From NCBI GenBank assembly GCA_963674705.1, contig OY771506.1, forward strand, positions 448,001 through 512,000: 64,000 nucleotides of DNA, written 5' to 3'. Shown here in pieces: positions 18,001 through 30,000 of the stretch; positions within the stretch are counted from its first letter, which is position 1; each line of letters opens with the position of its first letter. The DNA comes from Phycisphaeraceae bacterium. GTDB lineage: Bacteria > Planctomycetota > Phycisphaerae > Phycisphaerales > Phycisphaeraceae. Position numbers: made by a program.

Positions 18001-21000
18001 ACAAGCCGATGGCGTCGTAAGGTACTTGCTGGATCTCGATCGATCGGAAGTAAGCCGAGGCTGCACGGTGGTTTCCGCCACGATCGATGTGGAGCATGAT
18101 CTGGACGGGTTGGTTTGCACCTTCGCGCACGCCTCGCACGCCGGCTTTGAGCAGGCCGGCGAATCGGCCCCAGGCTTTGGCGTTGTCGGCGAAGTCCTTC
18201 TCGCTCCATGAAGGCTCGTTGGTCAGGTGGGCGTGGGCGATGCGGCCGTGGTCCCAGAGCATGCCGGGGGTGATTTCGTTGCCGATCTGGACGCTGGACG
18301 GGCAGCAGCCGCGGGCGGAGAGGTCCTGGAAGACGTCGCGCGTGTAGGTGAACATGGCGTCGACGGTATCTTTGTAACTCAAGTCCTGCCAAGCCTTTGG
18401 GATGTATTGCTTGGCGGGATCGGCCCAGGTGTCGGAGTAGTGCATGCAGAGCATAACCTGCATGTCGGCGTCGATGCATTGCCTGGCGAGATCGCGTGTG
18501 TAGGCGAGGTCGTTGACCTGCGCGCCTTGGCCGGAGGGCGTGTGGAAGAGGCGAAGGCGGGCACAAGTGATGCCGGCTTCGCGGAGGATGGTCAGGGGCG
18601 GCGCGGGGACGGCGTTGCGGGTGTAGACGGCCCCGTGGTCGACCAACTGCTTAAGCATCGAGATGTCGGCTCCGAGGAGCGGCTGCTTAGTCATTGCGGG
18701 GGCTGCACTTCTGATGAATGCGGACCGTGCTGGTGGTCGGCTGCGGGGCGCTGGGCAAGGCCGAAGCACCGATCGCGAGGCCGTATCCGGTCCCGTCCTC
18801 CAAAGGCTGAGGTCATTTATTCTGCAAGGCATCGTAACATTGAACGTTCAAATAGTCAAATGTTTGTAGTAAAAGCATCCTATTTGTGTTTTCGGGGTGG
18901 TGATACGGGCAGCACGATGACGGGCCTAATAAGGATCATTTGCGGCGACGGAACCGGGGCAGCGTCCGAATCCATAAACTATTGTCAAATCAATCTATGA
19001 AAGCATAAATCCCTGTTATTTTCAGGGATTTTTCCTCGACATGAGCCTGGCATGGGGTAGAATATTGAAACCTTCAAGTAAATGGGACACTGTGGGTTGG
19101 CCGGGTGGCCCGGTGACAATCCGAAGAGCATCCGGTGAAGCTCCGGGGCAATCCGCGGGTGGCCGTTCGGGACGGGCGGGTTTTCCCGTAGGTCTTTATG
19201 TTGTATTTTGTAATGAACATTCACATTGGCGGTTGATTTGAAGACCAGCGACGACAAACAAAACCAGCCCCGCCCCCGAGTGACCAAGCCCAGGCGTGCG
19301 CCCAAGTCGCGCGTGACGATCCGTGATGTGGCGGTCGAGGCGGGCGTGAGTATCGGTGCGGTGTCGGACATCATTAACCGGGGCCTGTCACATAATTACG
19401 CGGCCGCGACGCAGGACCGTGTGCGTGCGGCGATGGATCAACTGGGGTATCGGCCGGACCGTGCGGCGCAGGCGCTTAGGCGTGGCCGAACGGATACAGT
19501 CGGCGTGATGCTGTCGCGCGGTTTGGAGAACCCGTACTACGGCCGGCTGTTCCACGAGATCCAGGTGGCGCTTGAGCGGTACAAGCTCAGTTCCGAATTG
19601 ATGGTGTACCCGGCGCAGGAATCGAAAGACTCGCGCCGCGGCGCCGATTGGCTTATCGGCAAGGGCGTAGACGCTTTAATCGTCGGGCCTTTGTATTACT
19701 GGGATGAGCATATCCTCGAGGATTTACGGTCATTGAAAGGCGGCGCGTGTCCGATCGTGACGTTCGGCGCGGTGCGTGATGAAGCGGGGATGCATCATAT
19801 TCTGTTTGAAGATGAGAGTTGCGGGCGGATGGGCGCGGAGTATTTGATCGGTAACGGTCACAAGCGGATCGCGTACCTGGGCGCCTATTCCGCGGCCGAA
19901 GCCGGCAAGGGCAGGGGAACGGTGCAGGAAGGCGTGGAGCGCGTGCTTAAAGCCAATGCCCTGCTCGACCGCGACTGGTTCATCGAAGGGCCCGACCACG
20001 GGCGGTTTGATGAGTGCAAGATGATGGCGGAGAAGTTCGCGGGATTGTGGCTGGACACGGACCCGGCCGACCGCCCCACTGCCGTGATGTGCAAGAACGA
20101 CCAGATGGCGATCACGGCCCTGGCGATCTTTTACGAGTTCGGGATCAAGGTGCCGGAGCAATTGTCGGTGATCGGCTACGACAACGTGCCGGAGAGCGAG
20201 TTTATCGTGCCGTCGCTGACGACGATCGACAACGCGATCAGCGCGCGGGTGGCGAGCGTGGCGGGCCAGGTAGCGAAACTACTTAGTATAAAAGAAGTTG
20301 CATCATGGAAAGCGCCTGCGATCGCGCCATCGTTAATCGCCAGGCGATCGGTGAAGCAGTGTGTTTGAGGAACCGGAGTGAGTCCTGGGAAGGTCCGGGG
20401 AGAAGTGAATTTATCATTTTTTGATTGACAGAGATGGGAGAATCGTTAAGATTTAAGCAGTTTGAAACGTTCAATCAACACTTGGCGGAGTCTAGGTTGT
20501 GCTTCTAAGCCCGACCGCTCAAATCGAAACGTTCAAATCAGCGGTTGAAAACCGCACACAGATATACCGCCGCCCGACGGGATTCGGGCAAGACTATATA
20601 AGTCACTTCGACAGCTTCACAGCGTTGGATTCTTCAACAACACCAAGAGGAGGAATGAGAATGGACGGAGTAAGGAGAAAGTTGTGCGTGGCCGCCGTAG
20701 CCATGTTCGGCTGCGCGGCGATGGCGAGCGGGGCGACGTTTACCGAAGGCAATCAGGTCGGCTGGACCTGGAGCGACATCCAGGGCCAGACGTTCGGCGC
20801 GGGCATTGAGCCGGTGGCTGATCCGGGCTTGGCTGCAGGTGATCCGGTGTACCTGACCAGCTTTGAGCTGACCCGCAGCGGCGCCGGCTACGGCGATCCG
20901 GATGCGGATGTGTACCTGGCGATCATGCCCGCCGCGTTCTATGACTGGAACAGTGCCCCCACGACCGGCGACGCTGTCGGCATCTCGGAAAATTCATACA

Positions 21001-27000: not shown

Positions 27001-30000
27001 GAGCTGGGGCGCGTTTGATATCGTACTGACCGTACTGGTGATCGGGCTGGTGCTGGGGATGTATGGGTACTTCACGTTCTGGCTGATGTAGGCCAAATGA
27101 AGTCTCCTTAACCATCATGAAGTCGTGCTTTAGCCACAGATAAATATGGATAGCGCAGAATCCCAGTCCCTTTTCCCCTCGGGAGAAGGTTGGGATGAGG
27201 GGCGGATTGATTAGGCGCTCTTATTTAAAACTGTATACACAAGGTCACTGGCCCTCACCCCGGTTCTCCGGGGGGAAAGGGAGTGAGTTCAGGCTTCGAT
27301 CAGGTGGGCGCCCTGGGCGGGGCGGGTGACGAAAGGTGTTGCCTCGGTGCCGATCTGTTTCTTGTAGGCGTTGCAGATCGTATCGGCAATGGATTGGGCT
27401 TTATCGGCGCGGACGAGGTTGACGGTGCAGCCGCCGAAGCCGCCGCCGGTCATGCGTGCGCCTATGACGCCGCCGTCGCCTTTGAGTTCCGATGCGAGTT
27501 TAACGAGCAAATCGAGTTCAGGCGTGGAGACTTCGTACTTCACGCTCAGCGATTCGTGCGAAGCGAACATGGCTTCGCCTGCCTTTTCCAGGTTTTTCAA
27601 TGCCATCGCGTCGGCGAAGGCGAGTGTGCGCTCATCTTCATAGATGACGTGGTCGGCCCGCATGTATTGGACTTCGGAGAGCCTGCCCTTTGCGTCTTCG
27701 AGCATGGCGGGTGTTGCGTCGCGCAGTTGATTAACGCCGAGGATTTGCGCCGCCTGTTCGCATTGCGTGCGTCGTTCGGCGTATTCCCCGCCGGATAGTT
27801 CGTGTTTGACGTTCGAGTTGATGATGAGGATTGCGAGGCCTTCATCATCGAGCGGGACGTCGCGCGTGGAGTAGTCACGACAATCAATAAGCAAGGCGCA
27901 GCCTTCCTTGCCCATGGCGCTGATGAACTGGTCCATGATGCCGCAGGGCGTTCCGCCGTAGCGGTGTTCAGCCATCTGGCAGAGCATGGCCTTGTTGACG
28001 GGGTTGAAGCTGATCCCGCCTAGCGCTTCGAGCGCGGTCGCGGTGGCAAGTTCGATCGCGGCGGAGGATGAGAGCCCCCCACCGGCGGGAACGTTGGAAT
28101 CGAGCATCAGGTCGAAGCCGGTCGGCGTGTAGCTGAAGGCGACGACGCCGCGCAGGTAGCGGGACCAGTCGGGGTCGCCCAGGCCGATCGGCGCGGTGTG
28201 GATGGTTTCGCCGTTGATATCGACGGGCAGTTCGGCTTCGCCGGGTAGTGCCGTGGAGCGCATGTGCGCGATCTTGTCGGTGCGTGGGCGGAGCATGACG
28301 ACGCTCTGGCGTTCGATAGCCATGGGCAGGACGAACCCGCCGTTGTAGTCGGTGTGTTCGCCGATAAGATTGACGCGCCCCGGCGCGACGGCGGCGATGG
28401 TCGGTTCAGCACCAAAAGCCTCCTGAAAGGCTTTTCGCGTGGCGTCGATCTGGTCCTGCAACTGCTGGGCGTGTGTGTCTGGCATAGCCGCACATCTTAG
28501 CGAAATCCTGCCAGCGATTGACCGGGAAGAGATTCAAAAGTCCGCGAAGCAAACCGGCCGATGCAATTATCAGTTGCATGACTTAACCCCAAATTGCCCG
28601 ACTTACCGTAAGTGATGGAATAAGGTAAAGTACGGATAATCTTGGAGGACGAATACACCCCAATCTCGGGAGGTGTGATGAACACGTCTACGGCCCTTAG
28701 CGTTCAGTACACGACCACGGTCCGGCTGGAGTATCCGCACGATACCGGGTGGATGGCAAAAATCACCACGGTGATCGCGGAGCACGGCGGGTCGATCGGC
28801 TCGGTCGACCTTGTGCAGATCCGCAACGAGCGGACGCTGCGCGACTTCAGCGTCGAGTGCGCTTCGACGGATCATGCGCATGAAATTGTGCAAGCGCTTC
28901 AGAAGCTGGACGGACTTGTGGTGCGCAGCGTGTCAGACAACACGTTCCTGATGCATCTGGGTGGAAAGCTGGAAGTGCGATCGCGTGTGAAGCTCAAGAC
29001 ACGCGCGGACCTCTCGATGGCGTACACGCCAGGCGTGGCGCGCGTGTGTAACGCGATCGCCAAAGATGTCCAGCACTCGTTCAACTTGACAATCCGCAAG
29101 AACTGCATCGCGATCGTTTCCGACGGCAGCGCCGTGCTTGGTTTGGGTGACATCGGCCCCGAAGCGGCGATGCCCGTGATGGAGGGCAAGGCGGTCCTGT
29201 TCAAACAGTTCGGCGGGGTCGATGCGTTCCCGCTTTGCGTGGCGAGCAAGGATATCGACGAGATCATCAAGTTCTGCAAGATGATCGAGCCGACGTTCGG
29301 GGGGATCAACCTGGAAGACATCTCCGCGCCGCGTTGTTTTGAGATCGAAGAGACACTGAAACGCGAGCTTGACATCCCTGTGTTCCATGACGATCAGCAC
29401 GGGACGGCGGTGGTCGTGCTGGCGGGTCTGATTAATGCGCTGAAGATCGTGAACAAGAAACCGGGCGACGTGAAGGTCGTCGTGTCGGGCGCGGGGGCGG
29501 CGGGCGTGGCGTGTACGAAGATACTCATGTCGTACGGCGTAAAGAACACGGTCGTGTGCGACTCGAAAGGTGCGATCGACCACGTGCGCGATTACGGGAG
29601 CAACAAGGCCAAGCTCTGGCTTGCCGAGAAGACGAATGCGGATAACGAACAGGGACACCTGTCGGACGTGATCCGCGGCGCGGATATTTTCCTGGGTGTA
29701 TCGCAGCCGAATGTACTGACAAAAGAAGATGTGCAGGCGATGAACAGCGACCCGATCATCTTTGCATTGAGCAATCCGGACCCGGAGATTGCGCCGAATA
29801 TTGCGCACGAAGTGGCGGCGGTAGTCGGGACGGGGCGCAGCGACTTCCCGAATCAGATCAATAACGTGCTGGCGTTCCCGGGGATATTCCGCGGCGCGTT
29901 ATCGGCGAGGGCGCGGGATATCAATGAGCCGATGAAACTCGCGGCCGCCGAGGCGATCGCTTCGGTAATCAGTGAGCAGGAGTTGTCGGCCGAGTACGTG

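Follow-up and report, generated by a model that had tools for sequence, protein, structure and literature searches.

The way in which large sugars pass the outer membrane of planctomycetes still awaits an explanation. A sugar locus of a Phycisphaeraceae bacterium (GCA_963674705.1, contig OY771506.1) encodes proteins that show no Pfam match to a TonB-dependent receptor or to the SusD family. The window, that is the whole stretch of DNA analysed, covers 64,000 nt (448,001-512,000 of the forward strand), and all coordinates of the locus are window positions, with position 1 corresponding to contig position 448,001. The survey's finding was a cassette of LacI regulator, two PEP-CTERM genes, pilin, GH53 and sodium symporter, and every one of these genes was located in the window. 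The plus strand carries a LacI-family regulator (19226..20368; Pfam LacI and Peripla_BP_3), PEP-CTERM protein 1 (20661..21392; signal peptide, a domain of about 190 aa of no known family, PEP tail), PEP-CTERM protein 2 (21498..22445; a duplicated motif, "dockerin-like" by our own motif pattern, ahead of the PEP tail), a large type IV prepilin (22559..23401; 268 aa when mature), an exported GH53 protein with a dockerin-like repeat and a PEP-type tail (23634..25097; Pfam GH53, 3.2e-41; start inferred from the ribosome-binding site) and a sodium:solute symporter (25301..27091; Pfam SSF, 4.9e-85). Besides this PEP-CTERM tail on the downstream GH53, the genes added to the earlier inventory are a second GH53 endo-beta-1,4-galactanase family ORF (17546..18832; 4.6e-79), an MFS_2 sugar transporter downstream of it (13916..15388; 1.5e-72) and a galactokinase convergent with the operon (27289..28485; Pfam GalKase_gal_bdg and GHMP), all on the minus strand. 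Such co-location of two GH53 genes, LacI, SSF, MFS_2 and galactokinase for one glycan is a trait of SusC/SusD-type polysaccharide-utilisation loci (PULs).

The downstream GH53 is predicted to be a surface galactanase, its PEP-type tail being assigned by motif pattern, with no match to TIGR02595. The minus-strand GH53, with its true start probably near 18694 as judged from the sequence, is likely to be cytoplasmic because sequence inspection revealed no evident signal peptide. The MFS_2 gene likely belongs to the same regulon; in L068, an orthologous locus, an MFS_2 gene also comes after GH53. Both PEP-CTERM proteins, paralogues of 48% identity, exceed the TIGR02595 cut-off and carry the C-terminal PEP motif, hydrophobic helix and basic tail, and the genome contains 3 exosortase matches. 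PEP-CTERM protein 1 is a candidate galactan binder, and its homologues adjoin GH53 in loci L069, L209, L210 and L211; in three loci, all near contig ends, they stand next to GH53 without a pilin. As candidate SusD-like binders, the PEP-CTERM proteins gave no match in Pfam or PDB sequence searches, and the nearest named clusters in the Atlas stayed below 0.9. Kinship of PEP-CTERM protein 1 with DUF4465 was rejected, as the alignment covers the tail only.

Both sides of the regulator gene carry candidate operators. A perfect 12-bp palindrome, TTGAACGTTCAA (18840..18851), falls in the spacer of a promoter-like site on the minus strand (18859-18831) and is kept in L075. On the plus strand, a promoter-like site TTGACA-16-TAAGAT (20425..20452), a consensus match only, precedes the PEP/pilin operon and is followed by candidate operators O1 (TGAAACGTTCAA, 20463..20474), 10 bases past the site, and O2 (CGAAACGTTCAA, 20525..20536). 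Three promoter-like sites were found, against 4.3 in shuffled sequences. The candidate LacI operator core AACGTTC adjoins each of the two catabolic promoters and is found again in two further genera, and the O1 core is also present upstream of the PEP-pilin-GH53 genes in L068, L069 and L075. When the regions ahead of 17 pilin operons linked to LacI were searched for palindromes of any kind, no shared palindrome was enriched over 1420 control regions, and the operator claim is therefore confined to the focal locus and its orthologues.

The prepilin has a class III signal with F1 and E5 followed by a hydrophobic helix (TIGR02532, 24.1 bits against a cut-off of 16.3; N_methyl also over its cut-off). 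In the predicted model (pLDDT 92) the N-terminal helix 2-53 is packed on the beta-sheet of a variable globular head. The 18 top matches of a wide fold search were all pilins or pseudopilins, the best being modest (Z 5.6, rmsd 3.1, 120 residues aligned), with ComP among the top matches (Z 4.3) and no solute-binding fold for the head among the matches listed; Foldseek against PDB gave no match at E<=0.001. Near the C-terminus there is an H-x9-DG motif, HEKSINVTYGDG, of which H and DG are invariant in 6/6 homologues; a loose form occurs in 44 of 71 paralogues. The C-terminal 120 aa gave no match to TIGR04294 at E<=1, and no Pfam match to DUF1559 (PF07596) was obtained at E<=0.001. Since DUF1559 is present in a 39% homologue and in the riboswitch-associated pilins of L182, L187, L188, L190 and L194, the focal pilin is a relative. 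Its head subfamily tracks GH53 in three genera, orthologues adjoining GH53 in two other genera (G144 and G272), while one subfamily linked to vitamin B12 is found class-wide. Inspection by eye revealed no GH53-type context around four weak matches to the head (E 1e-8 to 1e-11) in family f11, and the single locus returned by a metagenome scan with the head was judged spurious. The wider pilin family includes 142,235 representatives at E<=1e-10, mainly via the common N-terminus.

Genome-wide, 88 class III signal matches were counted, 71 of them of one signal-sequence type (mature length 205-327 aa) and 70 with a gene call; the survey's count was 76. The first 28 mature residues are identical in 50/71. 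A PEP-CTERM gene lies within three genes of 57/70 pilins (random mean 22.1, maximum 35; local-shift null mean 28.4, maximum 41), and a LacI/ROK regulator within five genes of 22/70 (random 4.7; local null 10.4, maximum 20). A CAZyme was detected within four genes of 40/70, against 5/20 random sites scored at slightly stricter thresholds. Loci combining pilin, PEP-CTERM, CAZyme and regulator numbered 27/70, compared with the 30/76 reported at slightly different distances. The link between sugar regulators and pilins was reproduced as well, 22 of 34 LacI/ROK genes having a pilin within six genes against 16% of all genes; within 8 kb the figures were 18/28 here, 11/20 in G247 and 14/22 in G145, over a background of 14-16%. 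In G433, outside the class, 52 pilin matches were found and no PF13377 regulator match. The reported matching binding domains were both confirmed, X25 for the amylase locus and LamG for the BNR loci. Sodium symporters are not enriched over the local null (9 against 8.3). The paralogue pairs offered examples both for and against shared locus content, pairs 1206/2474, 2253/3372 and 3487/3536 being unlike in context despite their closeness. Many of the 30 pilins without a CAZyme within four genes have neighbourhoods without an uptake theme, and one pilin of the same family stands at a NikR/ZnuA locus.

The cobalamin riboswitches extend the association beyond sugars. The only RF00174 match of the genome is followed by a PEP gene, a DUF4465-PEP gene and a pilin, an outcome predicted before the search. 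According to excerpts of PMC13398666, B12 is bound by DUF4465 proteins, one of them from Mucisphaera, and the DUF4465 profile matches 9hmu at 8e-51. The genome has 10 B12-binding-domain matches and no CobS match, and the pilin closest to its sole Peripla_BP_2 gene is about 17 kb away. One TPP riboswitch match, below the cut-off, has neighbouring genes without a pilin. Across the class, a pilin follows the riboswitch in 57/70 loci examined, of which 40 were chosen by hand and in which related genomes are not independent. In the reverse direction, 30/34 orthologues of the B12 pilin head have a listed riboswitch no more than 4.5 kb upstream (3 uncheckable, 1 without one), and 26 of 34 scoring B12 pilins select the B12 pilin among the 71 of this genome. 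The 80 extended riboswitch loci include 54 with a pilin, 8 with a TonB receptor and none with both; since separate contigs of G008 carry a pilin locus and a TonB locus, the exclusion operates per locus, not per genome. The gene order in L187 is riboswitch, pilin, a 139-aa gene, BtuF-type binding protein, FecCD and ABC ATPase.

The genome contains one TonB barrel match, away from the focal locus and preceding a YfiR-like gene in a signalling-type cassette, and 80/151 class genomes have no such match. A BBP2 porin search gave no match but was uninformative, its control being likewise silent. For a retractile type IVa pilus, genes of PilT, PilB-like, PilM and secretin type were found: two genes exceed the TIGR01420 (PilT family) cut-off, PilM_2 is present, secretins number 5, and a PilB-like gene scores 618 against a cut-off of 676. 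The genome carries several clusters for type IV filaments and type II secretion. No link between these pilins and the PilT cluster was apparent.

Because pilin genes occupy, in uptake clusters for sugars, vitamin B12 and metals, the position that an outer-membrane receptor has in other bacteria, the roughly 70 pilus-subunit-like proteins, usually encoded beside surface-protein genes, likely form a pilus-based system of nutrient capture. As B12 riboswitch loci carry the pilin, the constant element would seem to be the pilin and not PEP-CTERM, and the pilin is not confined to sugars. The pilin likely replaces the TonB receptor, beside which the PEP-CTERM proteins would be optional partners, acting as binders and enzymes. 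The claim of the survey that pilin and PEP-CTERM together substitute for SusC/SusD is upheld in part: the cassette stands in the position expected of a TonB receptor and its surface binder, the pilin subfamilies follow substrate, and a retraction ATPase is present, while the restriction to sugars fails at the B12 and NikR/ZnuA loci and the PEP-CTERM protein proves optional in five riboswitch loci. We give somewhat better than even chances to the view that these paralogues, each combining a near-identical assembly helix with a private head, serve a common retractile type IV filament as its substrate-specific capture subunits, this filament replacing TonB-dependent receptors. A broader proposal, for which the balance tips slightly to the negative, is that Planctomycetota lineages without nutrient TonB receptors possess a general outer-membrane import device, in which a single retractile type IV filament, together with a set of large minor pilins that can be exchanged for one another, would haul glycans, cobamides and metals through a secretin. 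Every such pilin would be induced by a signal from its own substrate, acting through sugar regulators, the B12 riboswitch or NikR.

At the focal locus, a galactan-derived sugar would relieve LacI repression, the PEP-anchored GH53 would cleave beta-1,4-galactan at the cell surface, and PEP-CTERM proteins 1 and 2 would retain the glycan. The pilin head would then take an oligosaccharide, retraction would pull it through the secretin, the symporter and MFS_2 would bring it in, and the cytoplasmic GH53 and galactokinase would complete the breakdown. The pilin would play the role of SusC or BtuB, and the PEP-CTERM proteins that of optional SusD- or BtuJ-like helpers.

The data on co-location and specificity would also fit if the pilins are periplasmic binding proteins, tethered to the membrane or assembled into a short pseudopilus, that trap or sense substrate before handing it on to the transporter of the inner membrane, entry being through some other, unrecognised outer-membrane pore. 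In the archaeal bindosome, according to excerpts of PMC4471445, sugar-binding proteins bear class III signals and a filament has not been observed, and excerpts of PMC8567305 place such proteins in the membrane fraction of Tuwongella. We nevertheless regard this possibility as unlikely, because L187, L188 and L108 already have a periplasmic binding protein beside the pilin, because the pilin alternates with the outer-membrane receptor and not with BtuF, and because the 309 neighbour proteins scanned include no outer-membrane barrel family except one DUF481 gene. Somewhat less probable again is transport in the outward direction, the pilins acting as cargo adaptors that export or display the adjacent PEP-CTERM enzymes and binders via type II secretion or a type IV pilus, which we liken to TcpB-TcpF and GlyGly-CTERM export. 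A co-oriented PEP gene directly adjoins 38/70 pilins (random 7.3, local null 10.2), 21 of the 30 CAZyme-less pilins still have a PEP gene within three genes, and at least two type II secretion clusters are present. However, 239 of the 353 PEP genes have no pilin within three genes (114 have one), the five riboswitch loci outside the class begin with the pilin and have no PEP-CTERM gene, a single B12 pilin subfamily goes with unrelated partners (DUF4465, propeller and others), and export alone leaves B12 entry without BtuB unexplained.

A role as substrate-induced adhesins, attaching the cell to substrate-rich particles with no part in transport, appears improbable: type IV pili help Fimbriiglobus to adhere to chitin (excerpts of PMC11131199) and Akkermansia MUL2, a PilM plus pilin-like core locus, is taken as an attachment system (PMC13174399), but adhesion leaves unexplained the B12 riboswitch control, the position before BtuFCD-type genes and the alternation with TonB receptors. 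That two very large families (PEP-CTERM genes being 353 of 4175) simply gather in the same variable regions is very improbable and largely refuted, for although the local null far exceeds the random one and abolishes the symporter signal, the 38 adjacencies surpass all 1000 local shifts (maximum 20) and orthologue and context are conserved in both directions.

The proposed capture by pilins resembles several known systems. Like SusC/SusD PULs and BtuB/BtuG/BtuJ loci of Bacteroidota, the loci here unite regulator, candidate surface binder, predicted surface enzyme and inner-membrane transporter, and the B12 loci share the DUF4465 (BtuJ) binding family (excerpts of PMC13398666). In contrast to the Bacteroidota loci, the surface proteins have no lipid anchor but a PEP-CTERM tail, and a prepilin fills the slot of the TonB receptor and SusD family, which are absent from the locus. 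Competence pili with the ligand-binding minor pilin ComP, and MUL2, also capture an external macromolecule by a type IV filament, each with one dedicated locus and one ligand. The archaeal bindosome, the Bas system of Sulfolobus, belongs to a monoderm without an outer membrane. Its binding proteins are ABC-type sugar-binding proteins, while the heads here are built on a pilin core, number about 70 and would also serve non-sugar substrates. A role in substrate binding for proteins with class III signals, their handling by a type IV filament machine and the link to sugar uptake would be common to both (for the bindosome, excerpts of PMC4471445). DUF1559 (SBP_bac_10)/H-X9-DG proteins have the class III signal, the H-x9-DG motif, tens of paralogues per genome and exported-protein genes alongside (excerpts of PMC8567305), as here, but the focal pilin reaches neither HMM, and the excerpts of that literature give no function or substrate link. 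The general idea of pilus uptake is already published as a hypothesis without genes, the "fishing rod" (Boedeker 2017; review PMC12078418), in which polysaccharide attaches to pili-like fibres that, it is proposed, draw it into the periplasm; the excerpts of these sources mention neither genes and loci nor regulators and substrate-specific pilins, for which candidates are supplied here and extended to B12 and metals. In two planctomycetes, dextran binds pili-like fibres and reaches the periplasm (excerpts of PMC5394234). The published dextran uptake is sensitive to CCCP, a property that does not point to an ATP-driven pilus in particular. A gene-based description of such capture was not found in the literature.

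The assertion that this cassette defines the PUL of Planctomycetota is not supported, because among 20 GH53 loci of other families only 5 showed a pilin within the stretch fetched, and no orthologue of the focal pilin was among them; the regulator-pilin link held in two further class members. No TonB receptor was found in the same 20 stretches, and with 15/20 lacking a pilin, sugar loci can lack both.

The finding puts names to genes and, with cobalamin, to a ligand; it also supplies a candidate operator and lends itself to straightforward tests by knock-out and binding. In P. limnophila, DUF1559-type pilins form the largest paralogue group, with 68 DUF1559/H-X9-DG-type members of unknown function (excerpts of PMC10632474). 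If the pilin model is true, this family would gain a function and "fishing rod" polysaccharide uptake a molecular basis, the substrate range of abundant marine and soil polysaccharide degraders would be readable from their pilin subfamilies, and planctomycetes would possess a TonB-independent route of active nutrient import, an active outer-membrane uptake parallel to TonB.

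In the galactan locus, open reading frames were found at the gene positions given by the survey's finding, and Pfam analysis identified LacI (ending at 20368), PEP-CTERM proteins 1 (20661-21392) and 2 (21498-22445), sharing 48% identity, the large type IV prepilin (22559-23401, plus strand; hereafter the galactan pilin), a GH53 with an export signal and a PEP-type tail (ending at 25097) and a sodium symporter (25301-27091). The galactokinase gene is convergent with this operon. Another GH53 gene is located at 17546-18832 on the minus strand, followed downstream by an MFS_2 transporter gene. 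The gene between these two (15669-17498, minus strand) encodes a 609-aa protein with no Pfam family, possibly an unrecognized glycoside hydrolase of the galactan regulon. The motif AACGTTC is present at 18840, 20463 and 20525. The site at 18840, a perfect 12-bp palindrome, falls within a promoter-like site's spacer, and the one at 20463 lies just past another such site; promoter-like sites at this locus were not more frequent than in shuffled sequence. Upstream of their PEP-CTERM, pilin and GH53 genes, a close relative (L075) and two other genera (L068 and L069) carry the same core, and we read AACGTTC as a candidate LacI operator.

Based on our own gene calls (4175 genes), the studied genome contains 71 large pilins of a single N-terminal type and 353 PEP-CTERM genes, both recognized by pattern. 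For the 70 pilins having a gene call, a PEP-CTERM gene was located within 3 genes in 57 cases and was directly adjacent and co-oriented in 38, and LacI or ROK was within 5 genes in 22, each count exceeding all 1000 random draws and all 1000 local shifts, which keep regional clustering (local-shift maxima of 41, 20 and 20, respectively). Symporters near these 70 pilins (9, against a local-shift mean of 8.3) were not above the null. After the Pfam scan of 309 of 316 selected pilin neighbours, from which small PEP-CTERM proteins and genes already labelled were excluded, a CAZyme, lyase or BNR_2 protein was detected within 4 genes of 40 of the 70 pilins, a sugar-type regulator within 5 genes of 31, and PEP-CTERM, CAZyme and regulator together at 27; in a random control, 5 of 20 sites had a CAZyme within 4 genes (101 proteins under slightly stricter thresholds, counting 3 duplicates from an overlapping site). 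Judged by this recount, the genome-wide numbers of the survey's finding were close, and the association it described was confirmed both in the locus genes and across the genome. A duplicated dockerin-like motif was found in 191 proteins of this genome, 162 of them also carrying a PEP tail. One TonB barrel was found, upstream of a YfiR-like gene and an apparent sensor kinase, which we take to be a signalling cassette.

One pilin locus of this genome contains NikR, ZnuA and ABC-3 genes, suggesting that the cassette substitutes for TonB receptors in general. The cobalamin riboswitch usually precedes btuB; under such a substitution, we expected it to precede a pilin cassette instead. As predicted, the sole cobalamin riboswitch match of the genome is followed by a PEP-CTERM protein, a DUF4465-PEP-CTERM protein and a pilin (the B12 pilin; contig positions 1886995-1887834). 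DUF4465 is a B12-binding family, and a Mucisphaera calidilacus member was co-purified with the vitamin (PMC13398666); the words PEP-CTERM and pilin are absent from the main text of that source. The genome gave 10 B12-binding-domain matches and none for CobS.

Among 151 genomes of the class Phycisphaerae, the riboswitch is present in 143, and no TonB barrel was matched in 80. Of the 174 riboswitch matches in the class, 70 were examined (the 30 best-scoring and 40 hand-picked across families, including two for a nearby TonB gene), and a pilin was located downstream in 57 (8 visible only in the 1.5-kb flank, and 3 recognized by eye from a variant motif). The other 13 include 2 at contig edges, 4 with PEP-type genes only and 3 with NrdD or MetE; in 2 of the 70 the riboswitch heads a TonB receptor, and in 2 it heads apparent cobamide salvage genes. 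When 36 extracted riboswitch pilins were compared with the 71 pilin heads (the variable parts) of the studied genome, 34 gave scores and 26 of these matched the B12 pilin best. The reverse search with the B12 pilin head gave 34 matches, and of the 31 assessed for location, 30 were just downstream of a listed riboswitch and 1 was elsewhere. Among 20 riboswitch loci outside the class, a TonB receptor was present in 6, a pilin in 5 and neither in 9; at all 5 pilin loci the pilin is the first gene and there is no PEP-CTERM gene. At one riboswitch locus (L187), the pilin lies upstream of BtuF-, BtuC- and BtuD-type genes. Pilin and TonB receptor were found together in none of 80 extended riboswitch loci; one genome (G008) has one locus of each type, on different contigs. 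The first genes past the riboswitch in L106-L145 include a 42-member exported group without a Pfam domain family, the commonest partner in B12 loci and a candidate for further B12 binders. In family f26, the genes downstream of the riboswitch pilin in L182, L188 and L190 include DUF6580 and a diphthamide-synthase-like one, and we would guess DUF6580 to be an inner-membrane B12 carrier.

The pilin head subfamilies track substrate, with measured limits to generality. The galactan pilin head has few relatives: one search gave 5 other proteins, and among 400 genomes searched, 2 of the 16 belonging to the same family matched it clearly. Both matches sit with GH53, one in a locus of GH2, LacI, PEP-CTERM, pilin, two GH53 and GHMP kinase genes (L069), the other with pilin, GH53 and MFS_2 (L068). 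Close paralogue pairs within the studied genome often have a common context, as for genes 1158/3355 and 1527/3464 (LamG/BNR loci), and paralogues 443, 444 and 2338 are all in GH20/ROK loci; common context was absent for the close pairs 1206/2474, 2253/3372 and 3487/3536. In two other class members, 11 of 20 and 14 of 22 sugar-type regulators were located within 8 kb of a pilin among the matches listed (30 weaker matches lie outside), against a background of about 14.5%. In seven other families, a pilin was detected in only 5 of 20 GH53 stretches fetched, none being orthologous to the galactan pilin, which stands against the pilin cassette as the general sugar locus of Planctomycetota; one further locus had a pilin 9.6 kb distant, and no TonB receptor was found in any of the 20 stretches. 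Homologues of PEP-CTERM protein 1 adjoin GH53 without a pilin in three loci, near contig ends.

The structural model of the galactan pilin, a confident one (pLDDT 92), consists of a 52-residue helix and a head rich in loops. Foldseek returned no match for this model, and type IV pilins topped the rows of a wide fold search with a modest Z of 5.6. The core is thus that of a pilin in kind, and for some half of the protein there is no close solved structural match, a result that does not prove the fold to be new. Profiles of the galactan and B12 pilins align over 193 columns, sharing the helix, a CP motif and H-x9-DG and differing in the loops. The first 28 mature residues are identical in 50 of 71 paralogue pilins, as expected if a single machine handles all. 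The genome encodes PilT-family proteins, one within a PilB-PilT-PilB-PilC-minor pilin cluster, as well as PilM, 5 secretins, 3 exosortases and 4 MotA/ExbB matches.

The interpretation of pilin and PEP-CTERM proteins as a SusC/SusD substitute in sugar loci holds in part, and is better put as a general TonB-receptor substitute with the pilin at its centre. We lean towards a model in which the pilin would provide substrate specificity at the outer step, a retractile filament carrying it through a secretin, with PEP-CTERM proteins as optional surface binders and enzymes; all steps of such uptake, from binding through import, are ones that we infer. The strongest rival, in which the pilin is a tethered binding protein that stays within the periplasm, appears unlikely. 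Slightly less probable still is a role as adaptor for export or display of PEP-CTERM cargo. One and the same pilin family appears to be employed by a single genome for glycans and B12, and probably metals.

Two further cassettes are present in the window. One (223-6341) has a pilin (3090-3848, minus strand) between GH18 and GH20, with ROK, phosphodiesterase-TPR and PEP-CTERM genes; the other (41042-52132) contains LacI, two PEP-CTERM genes, a pilin (45754-46617), a symporter and a 934-aa PEP-CTERM protein without a Pfam family, with an alginate lyase close by. A chondroitinase-B-type PEP-CTERM protein with its own LacI is located at 33225-36590. Elsewhere on contig C1, L016 (1889399-1895098), 3 kb from the B12 cassette, carries NikR followed by a PEP-CTERM protein related to the first B12 one (60 bits), a short pilin, ZnuA and ABC-3, and is a candidate metal-capture version. 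A type I phosphodiesterase-TPR fusion is within 2 genes of four pilins (337, 1162, 1568 and 2945). In L044 (4716541-4734491), two PEP-CTERM genes and a pilin adjoin glycerol-3-phosphate antiterminator, GDPD-LamG and MFS genes, possibly a glycerophosphodiester uptake version. An SBP_bac_11 binding protein (L010:8365-9165), presumably molybdate-type, is encoded immediately after the pilin in a LamG/BNR locus. In L024 (3113741-3133541), a pilin divergent to the pilM operon has genes for PEP-anchored endonuclease I and M14 peptidase in its vicinity; this pilin and four tandem ones 6 kb past the PilB-PilT cluster (L032) are possible core or DNA-related members. One pilin (5249947-5250621) lies among integrase-like and small phage-like genes, and the cassettes may therefore move on mobile elements.

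Sugar loci with pilin-like genes may, reportedly, already be treated in the Chthonomonas (Armatimonadota) genome report of Lee 2014; if so, the novelty is lower. Among the papers listed by full-text literature searches, supplements aside, none was seen to connect either such pilins or PEP-CTERM genes with sugar loci or B12 loci, the sources covered including available portions of PMC11685898, PMC11071339, PMC13174399 and 10.64898/2026.09.21.753266; pili are unmentioned in the available part of 10.64898/2026.10.06.756941. Among the literature on planctomycete pilins (PMC10632474 and others), the excerpts at hand describe dextran on pili-like fibres with CCCP-sensitive uptake, the mechanism being offered as speculation (PMC5394234), 'fishing rods' (PMC12078418), at least 41 such pilins per genome with signal-peptide genes at the flanks (PMC8567305) and clusters not characterised (PMC11131199); an archaeal bindosome is described in PMC4471445. 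The finding would extend known uptake based on type IV filaments, and there is a real chance that it represents a new class of outer-membrane import.
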